In this document: positions 3,435 through 63,328 of the stretch, in pieces | Position numbering within the stretch: position 1 is the stretch's first letter | Layout of the letters: the number at the start of each line of letters is the position of its first letter | Assembly: GCA_001871015.1 (NCBI GenBank) | Contig: MNUO01000005.1 | Location: forward strand, 1 to 63,328 | Reading direction: 5' to 3' | Origin: Candidatus Desantisbacteria bacterium CG1_02_38_46 | GTDB lineage: Bacteria; Desantisbacteria; UBA1551; UBA1559 | Length of the DNA: 63,328 nt | Notes under the pieces: model-generated | Databases searched by the model: none | Seen by the model: only the letters and a program-made list of their open reading frames with translations | Told to the model about the DNA's origin: nothing | Position numbers and translations under genes: made by a program

Positions 3435-3460
3435 GGTGTCAGGTCTTGAATTGTGAATTG
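3435..3460. repeat. Family-B repeat, left half only (GGTGTCAGGTCTTGAATTGTGA...)
   Basis: Shares GGTGTCAGGTCTTGA with 30794, 36915 and 43217, and shares ...CAGGTCTTGAATTGTGA with 40189-40223. The right arm is missing. Confidence 0.7.
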
Positions 3461-23446: not shown

Positions 23447-23510
23447 ATATCAGGACTAAAGTCCTGAGTTACATAGTCAGATGTGTAACTCAAACCTTTA
23501 GGTTTGATAT
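23447..23510. repeat. Two family-A hairpin units in inverted arrangement
   Basis: ATATCAGGACTAAAGTCCTGAGTTAC (23447-23472) and GTAACTCAAACCTTTAGGTTTGATAT (23485-23510). Both stems are fully paired but have different sequences. Confidence 0.9.
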
Positions 23511-23523
23511 TAGGGGTAAAATA

Positions 23524-25257: not shown

Positions 25258-26967
25258 ATGATTAAGAAGAGATTTGGTGAAATTCTAACAGAAAAGAAAA
25301 TTATTACTGATGACCAGTTGAAAACCGCCCTGGATATTCAGAAGAAAGAGGGCGGAACCCTCGGGCAAACTCTTGTCAGGCTTGGTTATGTTCCTGAAGA
25401 TGTAATGAGCCGGGAACTAAGTGAATTCTATGGTATTCCCTACCTGAAACTGAGCGATTATGAAATTGACTCTACTGCTCTTTCAGTGATTCCTGAGGAA
25501 GTTGTGCGCAAATACAGCGTTCTTCCACTTGATAAAATTGGTAAAACTCTCACTGTGGCAATTTCAGACTTCAATAATGTTATAGTGTTAGATGAATTGC
25601 GTGCAGTTACGGGTTGCCAGGTAATTCCTCTTGCAGCAAGCTCGCAAGAAATTACTGCAGCTATAGATAAATATTACAAGAAAGATTCGCTTGAAGACGC
25701 TATAAAAGATATGAACGAAGAAGAGCAAAAATTGGAGGTTACAACCAGTGAAGAAGAGAAATTCAAGACTACAGAGCTTCAGGCACAAGCAGAAGATGCG
25801 CCGGCAGTGAAATTAGTAAGCTTCATCATTATGCAGGCAATTGATGACCGTGCAAGTGATATACATATCGAACCATATGAAGATGAGCTGCGTATTCGCT
25901 TAAGAATTGACGGTGTGCTCTATGAAATTAATCCACAACCTCCCAAGAAGATGCATAAAGCAATTGTTTCGCGTATAAAAATCTTAGCAAACCTTGACAT
26001 TGCTGAACAAAGGCTTGCTCAGGATGGACGTCTTAGAGTTAAGGCAAGGGATAAAATCATGGATTTACGTATATCAACACTTCCAACAATTTTTGGAGAA
26101 AAAGTAGTTATGAGGATACTGGATAAGACAATTCTTGGTTATGATTTTAAACAACTCGGCGTGGAACCCGAGGATGTTGGTAGATTTGAAGAAGCAATGG
26201 ATGTTCCATATGGAATGATACTTGTAACCGGCCCAACGAGTTGTGGTAAAACTACAACTCTTTACACGATATTAAATCAACTCAATTCTTCCCGCGATAA
26301 CCTGATTACTGTTGAGGACCCTGTGGAATATCAAATAAGGGGAATAAACCAGATGCAGGTCAGACCTGACATCGGGCTTACATGGGAAATAGGATTGCGT
26401 GCAATATTGCGTCAGGACCCTGATACCATAATGATAGGAGAGATCAGAGACCTGGAGTCCGTAGAAATGGCTATTAAATCTGCTTTAACAGGACATCTGG
26501 TTCTGTCCACTATTCATACAAATAGTGCTTGTGCTACAATTAGCCGCCTCATAAATATGGGTGCAGAACCATTTCTTATCACAGCTTCTCTGGTGTTAGT
26601 AGTTTCGCAGAGATTAATCCGCAATGTTTGTCCACAGTGCAAGGAGGCTTTCAAGCCCCTCAAGGAATTCTTAGACAGGGCAAACATAACAGGCGCTGAG
26701 GCAAAAAATATAATGTTCTATCGTGGAACAGGATGTGATTATTGTAGAAATTCTGGATATCGTGGTCGGGCAGCAATTTTTGAAGTCCTTACGCTTAACA
26801 GGCATTTAAAAGAGTTAATTCTTGAGGGTGCTACTCCTCCTGTTCTTGAAGAAGCAGCTAAAAAGGAACTCGGTTTCCGCACAATGGGTGAAATTGCTAT
26901 ATCCAAAGCCAGGAAGGGCATAACTACTCTCGAAGAGGCATTGAGCTTGACTATTGCGGAGGAATGA
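25258..26967 (+). CDS. PilB/GspE/MshE-family secretion ATPase, copy 1
   Basis: T2SSE N-domain, Walker A GPTSCGKTT, VEDPVEY, GEIRD, HLVLSTIHTN, tetracysteine CPQC...CDYC. Confidence 0.9.
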   Translation: MIKKRFGEILTEKKIITDDQLKTALDIQKKEGGTLGQTLVRLGYVPEDVMSRELSEFYGIPYLKLSDYEIDSTALSVIPEEVVRKYSVLPLDKIGKTLTVAISDFNNVIVLDELRAVTGCQVIPLAASSQEITAAIDKYYKKDSLEDAIKDMNEEEQKLEVTTSEEEKFKTTELQAQAEDAPAVKLVSFIIMQAIDDRASDIHIEPYEDELRIRLRIDGVLYEINPQPPKKMHKAIVSRIKILANLDIAEQRLAQDGRLRVKARDKIMDLRISTLPTIFGEKVVMRILDKTILGYDFKQLGVEPEDVGRFEEAMDVPYGMILVTGPTSCGKTTTLYTILNQLNSSRDNLITVEDPVEYQIRGINQMQVRPDIGLTWEIGLRAILRQDPDTIMIGEIRDLESVEMAIKSALTGHLVLSTIHTNSACATISRLINMGAEPFLITASLVLVVSQRLIRNVCPQCKEAFKPLKEFLDRANITGAEAKNIMFYRGTGCDYCRNSGYRGRAAIFEVLTLNRHLKELILEGATPPVLEEAAKKELGFRTMGEIAISKARKGITTLEEALSLTIAEE

Positions 26968-28685
26968 TGCCAGTCAAAAAAAAGTTTGGTGAGTTTTTAA
27001 CTGAATCTAAAGTAATTACTGATGGGCAACTAAAAAGCGGACTTCAGAATCAGAAAAAAGAGGGAGGAACCCTGGGACAGGCACTAATAAGATTAGGTTT
27101 TGTTTCCGAAGAAGACATGAACAAGTACCTGAGCGATTACTATGGTGTTTCCTATGTTGACATTAAGCAATATGAAATAGACCCACAAGTTCTGGCTCTA
27201 ATTCCAGAACAGATTGTACGTAAGTACAAGGTTATTCCACTGGACAAGATGAACAACAACCTTACCATTGTTACCGCAGATTTGACCAATGTATTTATAT
27301 TTGATGAGCTCAGAGTAATAACCGGTTGCGATATTACTTCTCTTCTTACCAGTGAGTCTGAAATTAATTCTGCAATTGAAAGATATTATGGAAAGAAGGT
27401 TGGTTTTGAAGAGATGATAAAGGAGATAAGCAAGGAAGGAGAAGACATTGAGATTCACAAGGAAGAAGAAAAGGGTGTAGATGCTTCTCAGTTACAAGTT
27501 GCTGTGGAAGGTGCCCCTGTGGTTAAATTAGTAAACTTCATCATTATGCAGGCAATTGATGACCGTGCAAGCGATATACATCTTGAGCCCTATGAGAAAG
27601 ATTTCCGCCTTCGTTATAGAATTGATGGAGTGCTTTATGAAATAAACCCTCCTCCTCCAAAGGCACTGCAGAATCCTATTATTGCCCGCATTAAGGTGCT
27701 TTCGAATCTCGACATTGCTGAAACAAGACTTCCCCAGGATGGGCGTATAAGGGTAAAGACCAAGACTAAAATTGTTGACCTGCGCGTATCAACATTCCCT
27801 ACAATATTCGGCGAAAAAGTAGTTATGAGGTTGTTAGATAAATCAAACCTTGCGCTCGATTTAAAACAGCTGGGATTTGAAAAGCAAGAATTAGACAAAT
27901 TCGATAACGTAATATCACAACCTTATGGAATGATTCTTATAACCGGACCTACAGGCAGTGGTAAGAGCACTACACTCTACTCAGTTTTAACAAAACTTAA
28001 TACAACAAGGGATAACATTGTGACAGTTGAGGACCCTGTGGAATATCAGGTAAGAGGTATAAACCAGGTTCAGGCCCATGCTGAAATCGGACTTACATTT
28101 GCTATGGGCTTGCGCGCAATTTTAAGACAGGACCCAAATGTAGTGATGGTGGGAGAAATTCGGGATCAGGAAACAGCAGAAATTGCAATTAAAGCAGCTC
28201 TTACAGGACATCTGGTACTTTCAACTCTTCACACCAACGATTCCTGCGGAGCAATTACCCGTCTAATTGACATTGGAATTGAACCTTTTCTTGTTTCAAG
28301 TGCGCTTACTTTAATTGCTGCACAGAGGTTGTTGCGTCGTATATGTCAGCAATGCAAGGAATCATATGCTCCTTCTGCAAAGACACTGGAAGATATGGGT
28401 ATAACTCCAAAATTAGGTGAACAAATTGTCTTCTACAGGGGAACAGGATGTGAATTATGCAAGAATACAGGATTCCGCGGAAGAACTGCAATTTACGAAA
28501 TTCTTACGCTTAACAAACATTTAAAAGAACTCATTGTAAAAAGAGCCAACACAATGGTGCTTCTAGAGGTTGCAAAAAAAGAAACTGGATTACGTACGCT
28601 CAGGGAATCCGCCATAATAAAAGTCAGGGATGGAATTACCACTGTTGAGGAAGCAATTGGCGTTACTATGGAAGGCGGTCTTTAA
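26964..28685 (+). CDS. PilB/GspE/MshE-family secretion ATPase, copy 2
   Basis: Collinear paralogue of the preceding gene. Walker A GPTGSGKST, VEDPVEY, GEIRD, HLVLSTLHTN, CQQC...CELC. ATGATG overlap with copy 1. Confidence 0.9.
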   Translation: MMPVKKKFGEFLTESKVITDGQLKSGLQNQKKEGGTLGQALIRLGFVSEEDMNKYLSDYYGVSYVDIKQYEIDPQVLALIPEQIVRKYKVIPLDKMNNNLTIVTADLTNVFIFDELRVITGCDITSLLTSESEINSAIERYYGKKVGFEEMIKEISKEGEDIEIHKEEEKGVDASQLQVAVEGAPVVKLVNFIIMQAIDDRASDIHLEPYEKDFRLRYRIDGVLYEINPPPPKALQNPIIARIKVLSNLDIAETRLPQDGRIRVKTKTKIVDLRVSTFPTIFGEKVVMRLLDKSNLALDLKQLGFEKQELDKFDNVISQPYGMILITGPTGSGKSTTLYSVLTKLNTTRDNIVTVEDPVEYQVRGINQVQAHAEIGLTFAMGLRAILRQDPNVVMVGEIRDQETAEIAIKAALTGHLVLSTLHTNDSCGAITRLIDIGIEPFLVSSALTLIAAQRLLRRICQQCKESYAPSAKTLEDMGITPKLGEQIVFYRGTGCELCKNTGFRGRTAIYEILTLNKHLKELIVKRANTMVLLEVAKKETGLRTLRESAIIKVRDGITTVEEAIGVTMEGGL

Positions 28686-30711: not shown

Positions 30712-30779
30712 TGTAGTGGTCGAGCTTGCTCGACTTGTAGTGGTCGAGCTTGCTCGACTTCTGGCAGAGTAAACTCTGC
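30712..30779. repeat. Two family-C units plus a variant hairpin
   Basis: TGTAGTGGTCGAGCTTGCTCGACT at 30712-30735 and 30736-30759, then GCAGAGTAAACTCTGC (30764-30779). Confidence 0.9.
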
Positions 30780-30793
30780 ACTTCCCGCATATA

Positions 30794-30822
30794 GGTGTCA
30801 GGTCTTGACAAATGACAAATAT
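30794..30822. repeat. Family-B element, left 29 nt only
   Basis: GGTGTCAGGTCTTGACAAATGACAAATAT is identical to the first 29 nt of the 69-nt element at 36915 and then diverges. Confidence 0.85.
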
Positions 30823-33237: not shown

Positions 33238-33315
33238 ATGTAACTCAGGACTTTAGTCCTGACATGTAACTCAGGACTTTAGTCCTGACATGTAACTCAG
33301 GACTTTAGTCCTGAC
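33238..33315. repeat. Three exact tandem family-A units (26 nt each)
   Basis: ATGTAACTCAGGACTTTAGTCCTGAC x3 starts directly after the stop codon. A further ACACAC/GTGTGT hairpin lies at 33326-33344. Confidence 0.95.
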
Positions 33316-33377
33316 ATTTTGAGTTACACACTTTCTCGGTGTGTCTCTGTGCCTTCGTGGTTGAAAAGTGAGGATTT

Positions 33378-34430
33378 ATGGATATTAATGAGATTTTGAG
33401 AGAAGCAATTAAGAAGGGTGCGTCTGATATTCATATGTGTGTGGGATTGCCGCCGATGTTCCGCATAAGCGGTGAATTGATTCCATTCGGTAATGTGAAT
33501 TTGACACAGGAAGAAAACAGGAAATTGATATATAACATACTCACGACACAACAAGCAAAAAAGTTTGAGGAAGAATATGAAATAGACCTTTCCTATGGTA
33601 TTCCAGAAGGACGTTTCCGGATTAATGTATACATGGATATTGGCGGAGTATCCGCGGCATTGAGGATCATTCCGGCTGTAGTTCCTACTATGGAAGAAAT
33701 TGGTATGCCGGAGATAGCGTATAAGTTTGCAAGATTACCAAGAGGATTGGTGCTTGTTACCGGACCTACAGGCAGTGGAAAATCCACGAGTCTGGCAGCA
33801 ATAATTAATCTGATTAATATAGAGAGGAACTGCCATATTATTACTATTGAAGACCCTATTGAATTCATCTATCAGAGGAGAAAAGCGATTATCAATCAGA
33901 GGGAATTGAACTTTCATACGAAGTCTTTTTCCCTGGCATTGAAATATGCTCTTCGCCAGGACCCCGACGTGCTCCTCGTAGGTGAGATGCGAGACCTGGA
34001 AACAATTGCTGCTGCTGTGACCCTTGCAGAGACAGGCCATCTTGTTTTTTCAACGCTTCACACCATTGATGCAGCTCAGACCGTTGACCGTATAATTGAT
34101 GTTTTTCCAGCATATCAACAGCAGCAGATAAGAGCCCAATTATCGATGGCATTAGAGGGCGTGATATCTCAGCAATTACTTGGCCGAGTTGGTGGAGGAC
34201 GCGTTGCAGCAAGAGAAGTAATGATTGTAAATACAGCTATCAGCAATTTGATTCGAGAGGGAAAAACACATCAGATTTACAGCGCCATACAAACGAATGT
34301 GGGTATTGGAATGAAAACAATGGAACAATCTCTTAAGGAAATTTACGATAAGGGTTTAATATCCTATGACGAGGCTATTTCCAAATCCAGCAATCCTGAC
34401 GAGATGAGAAGGTTGATAGGAGGTGCTTAA
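33378..34430 (+). CDS. pilT: Type IV pilus retraction ATPase PilT
   Basis: ASDIHM, Walker A GPTGSGKST, IEDPIEF, GEMRD, GHLVFSTLHT, AIxNLIREGK-type motif (AISNLIREGKTHQIYS). Confidence 0.9.
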   Translation: MDINEILREAIKKGASDIHMCVGLPPMFRISGELIPFGNVNLTQEENRKLIYNILTTQQAKKFEEEYEIDLSYGIPEGRFRINVYMDIGGVSAALRIIPAVVPTMEEIGMPEIAYKFARLPRGLVLVTGPTGSGKSTSLAAIINLINIERNCHIITIEDPIEFIYQRRKAIINQRELNFHTKSFSLALKYALRQDPDVLLVGEMRDLETIAAAVTLAETGHLVFSTLHTIDAAQTVDRIIDVFPAYQQQQIRAQLSMALEGVISQQLLGRVGGGRVAAREVMIVNTAISNLIREGKTHQIYSAIQTNVGIGMKTMEQSLKEIYDKGLISYDEAISKSSNPDEMRRLIGGA

Positions 34431-35404: not shown

Positions 35405-35992
35405 GTGGTTAAGGTCGGTTTTATTGGATGTGGGGGAATGGCTGGAGTGCATCTGGATAAACTGAAACAGATAGAAGATGTGCAGATAGTGGGTTTATGT
35501 GATATAATAGAAGAAAAGGCAAGGGTGTACAATCAGAAATATGGTGGCAATGTATATACTGACCACAGGGTGATGCTTGATAGGGAAAAAAGTGTTCATT
35601 CTCTCGGATACAGGGGTTTGCTGACAGATATACCGGAAAATGATGTTGACGATGCTTCATCGGCTAACCTTAAGTTTAAAAGCGGAGCCGTTGGCAATTT
35701 TTCAACCACATGTATTCTAAATCCAGGAGTAGGTATGGGACTTGAAATTGCTCTTAAACACATGATGATAAAGGCAGATTCTTCTGGTTACAGTATTATC
35801 AGCGAGCAGCCCCAGGAGGTTAAGGCTACAAATGACTACCTGCTGGATATAGAAAAGTCATTCATAGAGGCAATAAAAACAGGTGACCGTTCTAAGATAA
35901 AATGTAATTATGAGGACGGAATGAAAACTCTTGAAGTAACTCTCGCAGTAAATGAATCAATAAAGACAGGGAAGACCATTCATTTAAAGTAA
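35405..35992 (+). pseudogene. Gfo/Idh/MocA-family oxidoreductase remnant (internally deleted)
   Basis: Only 195 aa. The Rossmann start VKVGFIGCGGMAG...YTDHRVMLDREK jumps straight to C-terminal-domain-like sequence, and no EKP motif is present. The intact family member at 44187-45359 is 390 aa. The stop codon lies inside a repeat unit. Confidence 0.55.
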
Positions 35993-36108
35993 CTCAAACC
36001 TTTAGGTTTGATATCAGGACTAAAGTCCTGAGTTACGTAACTCAGACCTTTAGGTTTGATATCAGGACTAAAGTCCTGAGTTACGTAACTCAGACCTTCA
36101 GGTCTGAT
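35989..36108. repeat. Five abutting 24-nt family-A units in alternating orientation
   Basis: Units at 35989, 36013, 36037, 36061 and 36085: forward, reverse, forward, reverse, forward. Followed by TTTTT. Confidence 0.95.
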
Positions 36109-36175
36109 TTTTCTTGAAGTTATAAGTATAATATTAAAATCTTGGACTTCGTCCAAGAACCTTAAGGAGACGCAG

Positions 36176-36914: not shown

Positions 36915-36983
36915 GGTGTCAGGTCTTGACAAATGACAAATATCAGGACTAAAGTCCTGAGTTACATGTCAAGACCTGACACC
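36915..36983 (+). mobile_element. 69-nt MITE-like element: 17-bp terminal inverted repeats (family B) enclosing one family-A hairpin
   Basis: GGTGTCAGGTCTTGACA...TGTCAAGACCTGACACC. By manual comparison it is the exact reverse complement of 43217-43285. Confidence 0.8.
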
Positions 36984-38400: not shown

Positions 38401-40203
38401 ATGGAGAAAAAAAGAAAAATTTTGATTGCTATTTCTGTTATTTGCTCGAGCTGCATTGCAGCATATTTAATTTATAATTTAGCTGGTGGTGGTCCCCGTG
38501 CATATCTGAGAAAAGCAGATGCACTGCTGAAGGAAAAGCGATACGAGGAAGCAATCAATTTCTATAACCTCGCCCTGGAGAAAAAACCTAAATTTCCTGA
38601 AGCTCTTATTGGTATAGGGTCTGCCATTGATGCTATTGGCAGGCCCAGGGAAGCAATTAATTACTTTGATGAAGCAATCGAGATTAATCCAGGACTTGCA
38701 AAAGCGTGGAATTATAAAGGAAGTGCTCTGTACAGTCTTGGAAAATTGAATGAATCACTCCAGTGTTATGAAGAGGCATTGCGAATTGACCCTAAATATG
38801 GCAGCCCATGGGCAAACAAGGCTTCAATTCTAAGGGTACTTAAAAAATATGATGAGGCAAAAATATGTCTTGACAATTATATCAGACTTAAGGCAAATAG
38901 ACTGAAATTTGAAATTACCGTACTATCAATAGAAGAAACCATTAAAAGAATTTCGCCCTTAATTGAAAGGGTGACAGGACTTCATTACAAAAAAGAGGTG
39001 AAGGTTAAATTTATTGCTCCTCACGAGATGGAGGAACTTGCAAAAAGAGATTTGCTCAGGCAATCACTGTCCGAACTCTATTCTGCTGTTATTTTCACAA
39101 GATATGATGTTACGGACAAAATTCTTTATATTGTGCCGGATAATTTCCAGATGGATATTGTATTGTTGAAGATTGGCAAATCAAGAATTAAGCCACTTTT
39201 AGATTTGCTGGTGGGGCATGAATTGGTGCACGCCCTTCAAGACCAGCACTTCAATATTGGAACAAAAATGCTGACAATTAAGGATGTTGAGGAAAAACAA
39301 ATTTTTGATTGTATAATGGAGGGACATGCAGTTTCTACAATTGAGCAGGTTTCAGAGAAGATGGGGCTGAGTAAGGACATCGCTAGATTGAGTGCAAGGG
39401 TTTCAGCAGGAGATTTTCGTGAGAACTCTCCATTTGATAGGATGGCAACACAATATGTCACTTCTTTGTTCAACCAGACTTATTTAAAAGGTGCAGCGTT
39501 TGTCAGATTTATTCATGCAAAAGAGGGCAACCAGGGCATTGCGAGGTTGTTCAACAATCTTCCAAAAAAGTTGTCCATCGTAGTGCGGCCGCAGACTTAT
39601 TACGAGAAACTTCCAAAGGAAATAGATTATTCAAAGGTGTTTGGTGTAATTGAAAATGTAATACCGGATACAGGCTGGCAGAAACATGGTATGCCACTGC
39701 AGGAAATTTCACTCAGGAGTGGACTGTCAGCATGGGTATCTTCAAAGAAACTTGAAGAAGCTCTTGCCGGTTTTGAAGAGGGTTTTCTGCTCACATTTAT
39801 GAAGGGAGGGGAATCATTAATTTCCGCAGCGATTATCAGGTTTGGGAGCAATAAAGAAACAGATAATTTTTTTGAAGTTAATAATGGATCAGTGAAGAGC
39901 CAGTGGAATATGATTAAAAGGTCCCCGGGCATGAGTATTACAATCCTGCAGAACAAAAAATTTTCAATACTTCTGGCAAGAAAAGCAATTATAAAAGAAG
40001 CTGAGATTATGCGGTCTTCCGGCCAGAAAATGCACACATTGAATATTATTGCGGCATTTGAAAATTTTATCATTGATATTTCTTTCATAAACTGCAAAAT
40101 TGACGAAGCGGGTACCCACGAAGTGGGTGCAAAGAAAGTTATTTCCAGGATTTTAGAAAAATTAAATCAGGAATTAAAGGAGAAAAAAGGTATCAGGTCT
40201 TGA
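38401..40203 (+). CDS. TPR-repeat protein with C-terminal HExxH putative metallopeptidase region
   Basis: N-terminal membrane helix, TPR-like repeats (residues ~40-170), HELVHALQDQH motif. The stop codon lies inside a family-B hairpin. Confidence 0.5.
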   Translation: MEKKRKILIAISVICSSCIAAYLIYNLAGGGPRAYLRKADALLKEKRYEEAINFYNLALEKKPKFPEALIGIGSAIDAIGRPREAINYFDEAIEINPGLAKAWNYKGSALYSLGKLNESLQCYEEALRIDPKYGSPWANKASILRVLKKYDEAKICLDNYIRLKANRLKFEITVLSIEETIKRISPLIERVTGLHYKKEVKVKFIAPHEMEELAKRDLLRQSLSELYSAVIFTRYDVTDKILYIVPDNFQMDIVLLKIGKSRIKPLLDLLVGHELVHALQDQHFNIGTKMLTIKDVEEKQIFDCIMEGHAVSTIEQVSEKMGLSKDIARLSARVSAGDFRENSPFDRMATQYVTSLFNQTYLKGAAFVRFIHAKEGNQGIARLFNNLPKKLSIVVRPQTYYEKLPKEIDYSKVFGVIENVIPDTGWQKHGMPLQEISLRSGLSAWVSSKKLEEALAGFEEGFLLTFMKGGESLISAAIIRFGSNKETDNFFEVNNGSVKSQWNMIKRSPGMSITILQNKKFSILLARKAIIKEAEIMRSSGQKMHTLNIIAAFENFIIDISFINCKIDEAGTHEVGAKKVISRILEKLNQELKEKKGIRS

Positions 40204-40223
40204 ATTGTGACAAGACCTGGCAC
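40189..40223. repeat. Short family-B hairpin GGTATCAGGTCTTG-AATTGTGA-CAAGACCTGGCAC
   Basis: 9-bp stem CAGGTCTTG/CAAGACCTG (40194-40202 / 40211-40219). Overlaps the TGA at 40201-40203. Confidence 0.85.
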
Positions 40224-40236
40224 ATGGAGAATTGGC

Positions 40237-40635
40237 ATGAAAAGAGATAAAATTATTTTGAAGGGAATGACTTTTTATGGTTATCATGGCGTATCCAAAG
40301 CGGAGAGAAAAACAGGTCAGAGATTCTACATGGACATAGAGATGACCCTGGATTTGGGAGAGGCAGGCAAGACAGATAAATTATCAAAGACTATTGACTA
40401 CACGCAGGTTTACTCTCTTATAAAAGAAATACAATCTAAGAAGAAATATCATCTTATGGAATCACTGGCTGAGGATATTGCAAATGCTGCACTTGATAAG
40501 TTTGACAGATTAAACGAAGTTACTGTAAAAGTAAGGAAGCCCCACGCGCCAATTGGGGGGTTGATGGAATATGTAGAAGTGGAGATTAATAGATTGAAAA
40601 AGCAGCAAGAACCGTGGCGCTCGAGAGTGAGATAA
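40237..40635 (+). CDS. folB: Dihydroneopterin aldolase
   Basis: IILKGMTFYGYHGVSKAERKTGQRFYMDIEM and DYTQVY motifs. The ORF opens at 40207 inside the repeat; ATG 40237 chosen. Confidence 0.85.
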   Translation: MKRDKIILKGMTFYGYHGVSKAERKTGQRFYMDIEMTLDLGEAGKTDKLSKTIDYTQVYSLIKEIQSKKKYHLMESLAEDIANAALDKFDRLNEVTVKVRKPHAPIGGLMEYVEVEINRLKKQQEPWRSRVR

Positions 40636-40642
40636 AATACCG

Positions 40643-40665
40643 TGTAGTGGTCGAGCTTGCTCGAC
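40643..40665. repeat. Solo family-C unit
   Basis: TGTAGTGGTCGAGCTTGCTCGAC lies between the folB stop and the fhs ribosome-binding site (GAGGAGG). Confidence 0.9.
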
Positions 40666-40681
40666 ATACAGAGGAGGCAAG

Positions 40682-42382: not shown

Positions 42383-42578
42383 TGTAGTGGTCGAGTTTAC
42401 TCGACTTGTAGTGGTCGAGATTGTTCGACAATTGTAGTGGTCGAGTTTACTCGACTTGTAGTGGTCGAGTTTACTCGACTTGTAGTGGTCGAGCTTGTTC
42501 GACAATTGTAGTGGTCGAGTTTACTCGACTTGTAGTGGTCGAGTTTACTCGACTTGTAGTGGTCGAGTTTACTCGACT
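42383..42578 (+). repeat. Tandem array of 8 family-C hairpin units (24 or 26 nt) plus a partial ninth
   Basis: Units start at 42383, 42407, 42433, 42457, 42481, 42507, 42531 and 42555, all head-to-tail. There are no spacers. Confidence 0.95.
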
Positions 42579-42591
42579 TGTAGAGGTGAAA

Positions 42592-43215
42592 ATGTTGTAT
42601 ATTGAAAGTTCAATTAAAAAGTATCTGGAAGATTTATCAGCAAAATTGCCAGCTCCTGGAGGCGGGAGTGTCGCAGCTCTCGTTGGAGCGCTGGCTGCAG
42701 GCTTGGGTTCAATGGTGTGCAACTTTACCATCGGGAATGAAAAATTTGCATCACAAGAAGAAACTAAAGGAGTGTTGTCGATGGTAGCAGGGTTACAGGA
42801 AGAATTATGTAAATTGGTGGATGAAGATACAAAGGTTTATGGAAAAGTAAATCTTGCATACAGGTTACCTAAGAATACTGAAGAAGAAAAAGTTCGTCGT
42901 GCTCTCGCAATTCAGAAAGCATTGAAGCAAGCAATCCCTGTGCCGATGCGGATTGCTCAGGTTTCTTATCAATTGTTGGAAACTTCACTCCAATTGTTAG
43001 AAATTGGCAATCCAATGTTGATTACTGATACAGGGATGGTAGCAATTCTGGCGTATGCAGCACTTGAAAGTGCGCGTTTGAATGTTGAGATTAACCTGTC
43101 CAGTATAACAGATGAAGAATTTGTTAAGCAAAAGCGAGCAGTATTAAATCCTTTGATGGAAAAGGGCAAAGCAATAAAGGATGAAGTAGTAAAGAAGGTA
43201 GAAGAAAAAATATAA
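42592..43215 (+). CDS. fchA: Cyclodeaminase/cyclohydrolase-family protein (FchA/FTCD C-terminal type)
   Basis: LSAKLPAPGGGSVAALVGALAAGLGSMV signature. ATG 42592 sits behind GAGGTGA. The longer ORF from 42421 merely translates the repeat array. Confidence 0.8.
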   Translation: MLYIESSIKKYLEDLSAKLPAPGGGSVAALVGALAAGLGSMVCNFTIGNEKFASQEETKGVLSMVAGLQEELCKLVDEDTKVYGKVNLAYRLPKNTEEEKVRRALAIQKALKQAIPVPMRIAQVSYQLLETSLQLLEIGNPMLITDTGMVAILAYAALESARLNVEINLSSITDEEFVKQKRAVLNPLMEKGKAIKDEVVKKVEEKI

Positions 43216-43216
43216 T

Positions 43217-43285
43217 GGTGTCAGGTCTTGACATGTAACTCAGGACTTTAGTCCTGATATTTGTCATTTGTCAAGACCTGACACC
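43217..43285 (-). mobile_element. Second copy of the 69-nt MITE-like element, inverted
   Basis: Exact reverse complement of 36915-36983. Sits between the fchA stop and the folD ribosome-binding site. Confidence 0.8.
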
Positions 43286-55054: not shown

Positions 55055-55956
55055 AAAAATCCGCAGCGATGAACTCCTTACTTCAAATTACAAAGTTGCT
55101 TTTACATAAGCAGGGGATAAGAGTAAGGAAATATTTGGGACAGAATTTTCTTATTGATGAGGAAGTGTTACACAAGATAATTGAAGCTGTAAATTTATCT
55201 CCAGATGATTTTGTCCTGGAGATTGGAGCGGGACCGGGTATTTTAACAAAGGAGATTGCTAAAAGAGTAAAAAGAGTCATTGCTATTGAGCTTGACCAGA
55301 ATTTAATCAAAACATTAAGGGAAAATTTAAAGAATTACCCCGGCGTGGAAATAATAAAAGGGGATGTGCTCAGGTTGAATCTTAAATCCCTTTTTCCAGC
55401 AAATATCCCTGTTAAGATAATCGCCAATCTTCCTTATTATATTACCACTCCAATAATTATGCATCTTTTAGAGCAGAAATTCCCACCTTTTACGAGGTTA
55501 GTTATTATGGTTCAAAAGGAAGTGGGATTAAGGATTGTTGCTTCTCCCAAATCCGCAGACTCTGGAGTACTTTCAGTTATCCTGCAATACTATTCTAAAC
55601 CGGAATTAATCTCTATTGTGCCACGGAAAGCTTTTTTTCCTTCACCGAAGGTAGATTCTGCTATTGTGAGATTGACCATACGGAAAAACCCACCTGTCCA
55701 AGTAGTAAATGAAAACTTATTTTTTAAGGTAGTTAGAGCTTCTTTCAGTCATCGTCGCAAGACTCTAACAAATTCATTATTAAAGAGCCAGTTGGGACTT
55801 GATAAAGAAAAAATTACACAGTTGTTAGCAGATGCTCATATAGAGCCTGATTTGAGAGCACAATCTTTAAGTTTACAGAATTTTGCTCACCTGGCAAATA
55901 CATTGATAAAAACCACAGGGGCACAGAGACATCGATATTGTAACTCAGGACTTTAG
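55051..55956 (+). CDS. rsmA: 16S rRNA (adenine1518/1519-N6)-dimethyltransferase
   Basis: KYLGQNFLIDE, LEIGAGPGILT, ANLPYYITTPI. ATG 55069 is an alternative start. The last 6 codons and the stop lie inside a family-A repeat. Confidence 0.9.
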   Translation: MKKSAAMNSLLQITKLLLHKQGIRVRKYLGQNFLIDEEVLHKIIEAVNLSPDDFVLEIGAGPGILTKEIAKRVKRVIAIELDQNLIKTLRENLKNYPGVEIIKGDVLRLNLKSLFPANIPVKIIANLPYYITTPIIMHLLEQKFPPFTRLVIMVQKEVGLRIVASPKSADSGVLSVILQYYSKPELISIVPRKAFFPSPKVDSAIVRLTIRKNPPVQVVNENLFFKVVRASFSHRRKTLTNSLLKSQLGLDKEKITQLLADAHIEPDLRAQSLSLQNFAHLANTLIKTTGAQRHRYCNSGL

Positions 55957-56061
55957 TTTTGATATGTAACTCAGGACTTTAGTCCTGATATCAAAACTAA
56001 AGTTTTGAGTTACAACTTTCTCTATATCAAAACTAAAGTTTTGAGTTACAACTTTCTCTAT
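55940..56061. repeat. Four family-A units, including a 36-nt direct duplication
   Basis: Forward units at 55940 and 55966; reverse units at 55990 and 56026. ATCAAAACTAAAGTTTTGAGTTACAACTTTCTCTAT occurs twice in tandem (55990-56025, 56026-56061). Confidence 0.95.
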
Positions 56062-60288: not shown

Positions 60289-60346
60289 ATAGAAACGATT
60301 AATGTGTTGTAACTCAAACCTTCTCGAAGAGTCCGATTGAAATAAT

Positions 60347-60448
60347 ATCAGGGCTAAAGTCCTGAGTTACATATCAGGGCTAAAGCCCTGAGTTACATAT
60401 CAGGGCTAAAGCCCTGAGTTACATATCAGGACTAAAGTCCTGAGTTAC
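60347..60448. repeat. Four tandem 26-nt-period family-A units (reverse orientation)
   Basis: Units at 60347, 60373, 60399 and 60425. Stems are GGGC/GTCC (one G-T), GGGC/GCCC twice, and GGAC/GTCC. A degenerate unit lies at 60309. Confidence 0.95.
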
Positions 60449-62907: not shown

Positions 62908-62927
62908 ATATGAAGAAATTGAAAAAT

Positions 62928-63014
62928 GTAACTCAGGGCTTTAGCCCTGATATGAGCATGCAGAATGTAACTCAGGGCTTTAGCCCTGATATCAAACCTA
63001 AAGGTTTGAATTAC
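62928..63014. repeat. Three family-A units
   Basis: Forward units at 62928-62951 and 62967-62990 (stem TCAGGGC/GCCCTGA). Reverse unit at 62991-63014 (TCAAACC/GGTTTGA, flank GAATTAC). Confidence 0.9.
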
Positions 63015-63328
63015 TCCAGTGATTTTTGTGGATTCAGTAACAGATTATTTCTTTGTATCTTCCTGTCTTTGTGGTTTTTTATATTGAATTTTGTAGTTAT
63101 AAGTCCGGTTTACGCTATGGCAGGTAGCAATTCTATCCATGAAACTATTTTAAACAATGGACTAACCATTATATATAAGCAAAACCGGGCAAGCCAGATG
63201 GTAATAATGGATATGTTCATAAAAGGTGGAATTTTTTATGAAGACGAAGATAAATCCGGGATTACAAATCTGGTTGGGAAATTATTGTTAAAGGGAACTA
63301 TTAACCGCAGCGCTGAAGAAATTTCTAG
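63006..63328 (+). CDS. Second M16-family peptidase-like protein (3' end outside window)
   Basis: The frame is open from ATG 62910 to the window end. Signal-peptide-like RLFLCIFLSLWFFILNFVVISPVYA, then TILNNGLTIIYKQN...GITNLVGKLLLKGT (no HxxEH, inactive-subunit-like). The start is uncertain: TTG 63006, or ATG 62910/62952/62958 through the repeats. Confidence 0.6.
   Translation, partial: MNYSSDFCGFSNRLFLCIFLSLWFFILNFVVISPVYAMAGSNSIHETILNNGLTIIYKQNRASQMVIMDMFIKGGIFYEDEDKSGITNLVGKLLLKGTINRSAEEIS

Follow-up and report, generated by a model that had tools for sequence, protein, structure and literature searches.

A probable REPIN-like dimer of TIRYT-element ends with a nested REP hairpin in intergenic spacers of Candidatus Desantisbacteria

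How does one and the same sequence of 69 nucleotides (nt) come to lie in two unrelated intergenic spacers of a bacterium, once in each orientation? This question is raised by a stretch of 63,328 nt from Candidatus Desantisbacteria bacterium CG1_02_38_46 (contig MNUO01000005.1), the whole of which is called the window here. One copy of the 69-mer separates radC from a DUF5679 gene, and the other one separates fchA from folD, the neighbouring genes being named by Pfam. The original prediction, which had been made from the letters of the window, regarded the pair as an element that resembles a miniature inverted-repeat transposable element (MITE) and that had recently undergone mobilisation or gene conversion. 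Our work suggests, with a probability of roughly three in four, that the 69-mer is a non-autonomous dimer of the terminal inverted repeats (TIRs) of a TIRYT element, that it is similar to a REPIN and harbours a nested repetitive extragenic palindrome (REP), and that it has been moved by a Y1 enzyme acting in trans. TIRYTs are the proteins encoded by genes that resemble those of the REP-associated tyrosine transposases (RAYTs) and that are bounded by TIRs; the complete units have been called TIRtrons (Di Nocera, De Gregorio & Rocco 2013, PMC3733652).

The two copies are exact reverse complements of each other, as had been predicted, and the repeat search pairs 71 nt at 100% complementarity. Copy 1 reads GGTGTCAGGTCTTGACA-AATGACAAAT-ATCAGGACTAAAGTCCTGAGTTAC-A-TGTCAAGACCTGACACC, i. 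e. it consists of a left TIR, an inner extension of this TIR, one REP unit of a type that we call family A, and a right TIR (Table 1). The TIRs are perfect over 17 bp, again in agreement with the prediction; their suggested extension to 18 bp by the flanking T and A (or a TA target) was not borne out, since the flanking bases differ at other sites of the 69-mer. Both copies are indeed placed between a stop codon and the ribosome-binding site (RBS) of the next gene: copy 1 lies 4 nt past the RadC stop (36910) and 20 nt ahead of the DUF5679 start (37004); for copy 2, the distances are 1 nt from the FTCD_C (fchA) stop (43215) and 16 nt to the FolD start (43302). With up to three mismatches, the 17-mer of the TIR occurs eight times in the window, as compared to 0.02 occurrences expected from shuffled sequences. 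As single-stranded DNA, the 69-mer is predicted to form a 17-bp stem around the 7-bp hairpin of the family-A unit (-23.7 kcal/mol, z = -8.7), and in the mRNA context the predicted hairpin reaches -46.6 to -49.6 kcal/mol. The predicted 5-bp hairpin of the TIR arm itself is not more stable than the folds of shuffled sequence (z = -1.3). The TIR arm lacks a GTAG-type REP tag, and the inner family-A unit with its GTAAC tag is the sole REP-like part of the 69-mer. Rfam, used at its gathering thresholds, gave no match in the entire window. Two simple roles were rejected: a terminator, as no T-run follows the 17-bp stem in either copy, and a promoter as the common function, as the TTGACA-18-TAAAGT sequence inside the element faces the downstream gene in copy 1 and is antisense in copy 2.

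The TIR provides the link to a transposase. When one genome of each species was searched for the exact 17-mer, at least 102 stretches matched. Among the matches listed, the hosts are Nitrospirota, Thermodesulfovibrionales, Thermodesulfobacteriota, WOR-3, Omnitrophota, Desantisbacteria, Syntrophales, Geobacter and others. Based on the size of the collection, we estimate that about 70 matches would be expected by chance over the whole of it. Among the matches listed, the 17-mer is followed in 98 of 129 instances by the extension (T)(T/G)(T/A)GACA, or WNTGACA, to which AATGACAAAT corresponds in the window. Thus, the instances of the 17-mer belong to one family despite the number of expected chance matches. 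At several loci (L099, L077, L023, L074, L061, L071 and others), inverted exact 17-mers lie about 1.0 kb apart around a single open reading frame (ORF) of about 322 amino acids (aa), and the TIR-bounded protein contains the Pfam domains Y1_Tnp and Bac_DnaA_C (PF08299, E = 2.9e-9 and 2.2e-7). The NCBIfam model REP_Tyr_transpos (NF047646) scores these proteins with 71-74 bits, which is below its cut-off of 80. Ten TIR-bounded proteins were aligned with one RAYT, and all of them have the HUH histidines and a Y-x-W-S-S motif.

The ends are closely tied to the genes that they enclose. The left TIR is located 29-36 nt upstream of the ATG of the transposase gene, and the last codons of this gene, for the conserved C-terminus HVKT-stop, are part of the right TIR. 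As read by eye, the TTGACA boxes of the left TIR are 17 nt away from a TAGTAT or TATATT hexamer, and on sequence grounds the left TIR may act as the -35 region of the promoter of the transposase gene. The proteins that are bounded by the same 17-mer share only 31-60% identity across many phyla; those of L071 and L091 are 31-33% identical to the protein of L099 and yet have the same 17-mer, which is partly so by construction as the scan required the 17-mer. In single metagenome-assembled genomes (MAGs), dispersed single TIRs and short dimers carry the extended TIR of the resident gene (TTAGACATTA in Dive96_bin10.193, TTTGACAAAAAT in WOR-3 JZ-2), as predicted by proliferation from a resident element. 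Several MAGs among the matches L021-L122 hold multiple, often internally deleted TIRtrons, e. g. L022 together with L099 in one MAG, and L088. Thus, in contrast to typical single-copy, domesticated RAYTs, the TIRtron behaves as a unit similar to an insertion sequence (IS) that frequently decays. A plasmid of Legionella adelaidensis encodes a homologue that is annotated as 'transposase' and is 38.5% identical; its TIRs read GGGTCAGGCCTTGCC, with 12 of 15 aligned bases matching, and one of them overlaps the 3' end of this gene. In the plasmid collection, the homologues of TIRYTs were only distant, with at most 38.5% identity, and therefore no vehicle of the cross-phylum spread was identified.

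These features agree well with what has been described for TIRYTs. Their TIRs share the sequence GGGGWSAS, a consensus that we took from the text rather than from the figure of the original work, and TIR families occur as singles, dimers and groups (Di Nocera 2013, PMC3733652). The start of the TIR studied here, GGTGTCAG, agrees with this consensus at seven of eight positions, and a variant in the related contig L172, GGGGTCAG, at all eight; for comparison, the TIR on the Legionella plasmid reads GGGTCAGG. Most TIRYTs belong to subclass 2.1 of the TnpA-REP proteins and have Bac_DnaA_C or helix-turn-helix tails (HTH_23, HTH_28), and no REP-like repeats were found near subclass 2.1 genes (Quentin et al. 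2018, PMC6006769). As in described TIRtrons, we find a Y1 gene with a C-terminal helix-turn-helix, long TIRs whose start comes close to GGGGWSAS, one TIR overlapping the 3' end of the gene, and TIR copies dispersed as singles, dimers and groups. In contrast to the described TIRYT families, the element is a dimer into which the REP of another Y1 system is nested, its source lineage keeps only remnants of the gene, and the 17-mer is common to genes of proteins with 31-60% identity from many phyla. In the literature searched, the terms TIRYT and TIRtron are used only in these two papers, and the 17-mer TIR was not found as a text string in the searchable literature.

If the 69-mer is a mobile unit, there should be further copies. 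The metagenomes at JGI were scanned with the exact lineage-specific 27-mer GGTGTCAGGTCTTGACAAATGACAAAT, and 45 contigs were returned. All of them come from the same aquifer samples as the population of the window, have a GC content of 36-42% and do not overlap the window; the common samples, the GC content, the shared 27-mer and shared family-A units are the basis on which we assign them to the source lineage. About 39 distinct sites remained after removal of duplicates, and many of these are solo left modules. In agreement with the expectation of the original prediction, the identical 69-mer occupies at least six additional unrelated sites, with both orientations represented; the identity ends exactly at GGTG...CACC. 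These at least eight identical copies at unrelated sites and in both orientations, together with the empty sites in relatives described below, support the view that the element moved as a unit. Other dimers between the same TIRs have lengths of 60, 86, 93, 95, 131, 147, 166, 205 and 216 nt and contain between zero and five family-A units, and some arrays differ in size between strains, e. g. 216 versus 179 nt. Among 78 distinct TIR ends, 65 are exact. The base just outside the TIR (position -1) was evaluated for 77 distinct ends; it is A at 53, T at 18 and G at six of them.

The empty sites were found by comparison of the fchA/folD junction, which is 86 nt long in the window, with that of relatives. 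The spacer is empty and has only 9 nt (GAGGAAGAA) in L170/L171, 31 nt in L175, 38 nt in L176 and 40 nt in L168 (Ca. Desantisbacteria CG1_02_49_89, MNUP01), whose FolD is 81% identical at conserved synteny. L173 has a spacer of 59 nt with unrelated sequence, and an unrelated 78-nt palindromic insert is present at the junction in L177. The empty spacers indicate that the fchA/folD junction has been colonised and that its occupation is not ancestral. Other short palindromes occupy the same operon spacers of the relatives, e. g. GGGGCTGTCCC / GGGACAG...CTGTCCCC motifs and the 78-nt CCATAAGCTAT palindrome. It seems that throughout this clade spacers are colonised by differing families of hairpins.

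Where is the enzyme? The window encodes no Y1 protein as judged by tblastn, in line with the earlier statement that it lacks a transposase. The lineage contigs contain a TIRtron remnant (L148:1585-2109) that is bounded by the extended TIR of the lineage itself, i. e. the 27-mer. It has retained the first 14 codons (MSRPLRIEYPGALY) and a DnaA_C part of 119 aa (match to Bac_DnaA_C, 6.5e-9), and the catalytic domain has been deleted; the remnant in L166 has a further deletion of 231 bp. In the source lineage, the cognate enzyme seems to be in decay; the source genome may also encode a divergent TIRYT elsewhere. The candidate class that had been proposed, an IS200/IS605 TnpA or a RAYT, was right in kind, as the same TIRs bound genes for RAYT-like Y1 proteins with a DnaA_C domain. 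The search for such an enzyme in the lineage contigs yielded these remnants and a separate RAYT of the family-A repeats, which is discussed below.

The remnants have two further features. They abut the gene of a tRNA-Leu(AAG) (L148:2110-2191, minus strand), in the regions L148:1585-2409 and L166:6527-7158; three solo TIR modules, each with CTGCAAACCATTTGTCATT ahead, bracket the tRNA-Leu gene and the next spacer, and the two regions differ by the 231-bp deletion and a 38-nt module. Moreover, the relatives of the DnaA_C part of the remnant (P0124-P0259) among 1.84 billion cluster representatives are mostly proteins of about 100-200 aa rather than enzymes of about 320 aa. These short proteins represent truncated TIRYT remnants that are widespread, or else free-standing helix-turn-helix proteins derived from TIRYTs.

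How might such an element have formed and spread? The parent would be a TIRtron, which is similar to an IS, measures about 1 kb and has a single gene for a RAYT-like Y1 (HUH) transposase that contains a C-terminal DnaA-type helix-turn-helix. The dimer would retain both 17-bp TIRs and, on one side, the lineage-specific inner extension, and a single REP hairpin of a separate RAYT/REP system would have replaced the gene between them. As a unit, it would be copied into the short spacers of co-directional genes, from the stop codon to the next RBS, in a way that generates no target-site duplication. The likely route would be the single-strand 'peel-and-paste' by which Y1 enzymes of the IS200/IS605 type operate: the 17-bp-stem hairpin could comprise the entire element on one strand, each TIR could form a small TGTCA/TGACA hairpin, and a TIRYT acting in trans would carry out cutting and rejoining at the ends of the TIRs. 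The predominance of A at the outward -1 position and the missing target-site duplications may be taken as hints to this route; mobilisation by a Y1 enzyme and cleavage at the TIR ends are suggested here by analogy with the IS200/IS605 and RAYT enzymes. Only deleted remnants of the cognate gene survive; the family therefore probably represents a burst that was orphaned recently, and its copies probably persist as very stable hairpins in polycistronic mRNAs. The identity of the copies suggests a recent mobilisation, which had been predicted with gene conversion as the alternative. Like REPINs (Bertels & Rainey 2011, PMC3116915), the 69-mer consists of two inverted transposase-flanking repeats with a short spacer that form one long hairpin, and it is non-autonomous and extragenic and generates no target-site duplications. 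Unlike in REPINs, the arms are formed by TIRs that lack a GTAG tag, and the enzyme is of the longer TIRYT type that falls under the curated RAYT cut-off.

Several observations weigh against this interpretation. First, intact TIRYTs were not found in the approximately 365 kb of lineage contigs, in which there are only remnants, and the best full-length relative of the remnant among 1.84 billion cluster representatives is only 40% identical (HMMER); thus, our data lack the enzyme that supposedly mobilises the element. The literature searched yielded no biochemical work on TIRYTs, and cleavage at the ends is thus a matter of analogy. Second, the JGI contigs are not linked to the source lineage by assembly, the exact 27-mer that served as the probe tilts the census toward intact copies, and a BLAST comparison within the population gave no empty allele of any 69-mer. 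Finally, the junction of fchA and folD is not empty in all close relatives. Of the two closest ones, both with a FolD that is 84% identical, L175 has an empty junction; L172 contains a different, related palindrome of 29 nt there (GGGGTCAGGTCTTGAATTGACCTGACCCC), whose TGA is the stop codon of fchA. This palindrome could reflect an old occupied site that later underwent conversion rather than a fresh insertion, and the junction may be a site that is repeatedly used or has been occupied for a long time.

The L172 palindrome is one of the short elements of an 'AATTG' subfamily, in which the TGA within GGTCTTGA is the stop codon of the upstream gene (TPR at window 40189-40224, fchA at L172:1102-1130). 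Thus, these elements supply the last codons of host proteins in the same way as the right TIR encodes the HVKT-stop of the TIRYT.

Table 1. Positions of the 69-nt element, its parts and relatives, and other repeats. Positions without a contig name are those of the window; '+' means that the left module comes first.
Feature	Position	Strand	Remarks
Composite element, copy 1	36915-36983	+	69 nt, GGTGTCAGGTCTTGACAAATGACAAATATCAGGACTAAAGTCCTGAGTTACATGTCAAGACCTGACACC; between radC stop and DUF5679 Shine-Dalgarno
Composite element, copy 2	43217-43285	-	69 nt; between fchA (FTCD_C) stop and folD Shine-Dalgarno
Left TIR GGTGTCAGGTCTTGACA	36915-36931	+	same as TIRYT (Y1 transposase + DnaA_C) gene ends of other phyla
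Inner TIR extension AATGACAAAT	36932-36941	+	lineage-specific; holds second TGACA box
Family-A REP unit ATCAGGACTAAAGTCCTGAGTTAC	36942-36965	+	one copy; 7-bp stem, 4-nt loop, GTAAC tag on opposite strand
Right TIR	36967-36983	-	reverse complement of left TIR
Solo left module (TIR + AATGACAAATAT)	30794-30822	+	exact; 12 nt upstream of NTP-transferase start codon (30835)
Degenerate short palindromic relative GGTATCAGGTCTTGAATTGTGACAAGACCTGGCACA	40189-40224	+	36 nt; TPR gene stop (40201-40203) within; FolB start at 40237
Degenerate solo TIR GGTGTCAGGTCTTGAAT	3435-3451	+	2 mismatches; 'AATTG' subfamily, like 40189 and L172 element
Further 69-mers	L131:1871; L135:7195 (= L164:3028); L139:1 (= L165:5859); L140:4770; L145:4584 (= L157:10330); L149:2022		
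NCBI assemblies with both copies	GCA_002779445.1; GCA_002785525.1; GCA_002322535.1		
ENA assemblies with both copies	ERZ27293347; ERZ27293349; ERZ27293393; ERZ27293407; ERZ909571		
Family-A arrays	33239-33317; 35989-36110; 55939-56060; 60345-60448; 62927-63015; 23447-23520; L140:5944-6590		L140: RAYT gene with inverted family-A units
Family-B units	30712-30760; 40643-40666; 42383-42604; L172:440-465		
Other spacer palindromes	L172:2005-2035; L175:1134-1184; L176:2848-2885; L177:264-341		

The presence of a REP hairpin within the element suggests a different driving force, namely that the composite is moved by the RAYT of the family-A repeats, for which the hairpin would be the substrate and the TIRs mere passengers. 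Such an enzyme is intact in the same metagenome samples: L140:5944-6471 encodes a protein of 175 aa that passes the curated RAYT model (REP_Tyr_transpos, 88.9 bits versus the cut-off of 80). Its gene has GTAACTCAGGACTTTAGTCCTGA on one side and two reverse-complement family-A units on the other, and no TIRs. The flanking by inverted family-A units indicates that family A is the REP of a separate RAYT system, and the 69-mer is therefore a chimera of two Y1-linked repeat systems. The decay of the cognate TIRYT would fit with mobilisation by the RAYT, as would the finding that most TIR dimers of the lineage contain one to five family-A units in numbers that vary between strains. However, the identity of the copies stops exactly at the TIR ends and not at the family-A unit, there are TIR dimers without any such unit (86 nt in L124, 95 nt in L126) as well as the many solo TIR modules, and the family-A arrays elsewhere in the window have no TIRs. 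Moreover, REPIN-type mobilisation is thought to require two inverted REPs, and the 69-mer has a single one. We consider this explanation unlikely.

In many spacers, family-A units of 26 nt with the GTAAC tag and the stem TCAGGAC/GTCCTGA follow each other in tandem or alternating arrays, and there are sub-variants (stems TCAAACC, TCAGGGC and TCAAAAC) with compensatory changes in the stem. Family-B units of 24-26 nt, TGTAGTGGTCGAG(C/T)TT(G/A)CTCGAC, are classic GTAG-tagged REPs. A family-B array between FTHFS and fchA varies in length among assemblies, with a change of 98 nt in the offset from radC to folD in L001, and a single inverted family-B unit is located at the same FTHFS/fchA junction in the relative L172. 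With respect to its architecture, the 69-mer is similar to the bacterial interspersed mosaic elements (BIMEs) of enterobacteria, in which different short palindromes are joined as a mosaic, in defined orientations and varying numbers, and which lie in operon spacers. BIMEs combine REP subtypes of one family with sites for host factors, whereas the element studied here combines the ends of a TIRYT element with the core of a RAYT REP. It also resembles known composites of degenerate REP units fused to unrelated stem-loops, which are repeated hundreds of times, and differs from them in its architecture with the REP inside a TIR dimer, in its sequences and in its host lineage.

A second alternative, which we judge to be about as improbable as the action of the family-A RAYT, is that the 69-mer is a signal kept by the host, i. 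e. a hairpin for mRNA stabilisation or processing, a protein-binding site or an internal promoter, and that selection or gene conversion accounts for the identity of the copies. The location of the elements is suggestive in this respect: according to a crude gene caller, which placed three solos inside ORFs, all 26 classifiable sites lie between co-directional genes, 17 of them at most 24 nt from the downstream start codon. The very stable RNA hairpins, the promoter-like TTGACA-18-TAAAGT sequence and the related element at the same junction in L172 might also be expected of a host signal, and an 86-nt element is identical in two strains even though its flanks differ by about 3%. However, the location between stop codon and RBS is also expected from purifying selection in a genome with very short spacers. 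Both orientations relative to the downstream gene occur, and the RNA sequence and the direction of the promoter thus differ between copies. In addition, the inner content varies from zero to five hairpins, transposase genes from many phyla have these TIRs as their ends, and several relatives have no element at all at the fchA/folD junction. As the idea does not explain the origin of new sites, it can at best add to the transposition model, over which a role as a host signal could be an additional layer.

The 69-mer shares with classical MITEs, such as the Correia elements of Neisseria, that it is small, non-coding, present in multiple copies and bounded by perfect TIRs, and that such elements are often co-transcribed with their neighbours. 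Classical MITEs are derived from DDE-type insertion sequences and make target-site duplications, and neither applies here: in accordance with the original prediction, no direct repeat was found beside any of the eight copies of the 69-mer, and at the loci examined every ORF between these TIRs encodes a Y1/HUH protein and never a DDE enzyme. These two findings exclude a DDE-type MITE as far as such comparisons can, and we regard this origin as very improbable; instead, the element is better described as a REPIN-like TIR dimer of a TIRtron. Repeats of this kind do break contigs (L008 and L139 begin inside an element and L019 ends inside one), yet both copies recur, identical and with their unique flanks, in eight independently assembled NCBI and ENA contigs (Table 1), and single copies are found in seven more JGI or ENA contigs, so that the pair is not an artefact of assembly or chimera formation, an explanation that hardly merits consideration.

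Outside the repeats, the window contains two paralogous neighbouring genes (25792-26820 and 27507-28535) that are 1715 bp apart with 72-73% DNA identity. They encode type II/IV secretion ATPases (MshEN and T2SSE, Pfam, in L011), and a third, shorter T2SSE gene at 33744 shares the Walker-A region with this pair.

The interpretation of the 69-mer as a dimer of TIRYT-element ends assigns it to a kind of repeat that is already known but barely studied. Its uncommon features are the nested REP, the end that is shared across phyla and also encodes the C-terminus of the transposase, and the orphaned state of the family. It is tempting to speculate that the TIR and the TIRYT form a single phylum-spanning IS-like family, in which the enzymes have diverged to about 30% identity and the end has remained constant, perhaps because the end also serves as a -35 region and as the codons for HVKT-stop, and that in Desantisbacteria-like bacteria the dimers became fused with a RAYT-type REP and outlast the loss of the transposase by host use as hairpin punctuation of operons or by cross-mobilisation by the RAYT. 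As a whole, we regard this wider scenario as rather doubtful.

For the annotation of these groundwater MAGs, the elements account for many of the long spacers between stop codons and RBSs and for many of the contig breaks. The 69-mer itself would be most useful as a ready-made substrate for a first biochemical test of TIRYT activity by means of synthetic oligonucleotides. The TIRYT class gains a well-delimited substrate, with a 17-bp end that is shared across phyla, with miniature dimers whose boundaries are exact and with a gene that is preserved in successive natural stages of decay. Moreover, the nesting of two Y1-linked repeat systems in one element bears on the origin of mosaic repeats such as BIMEs.

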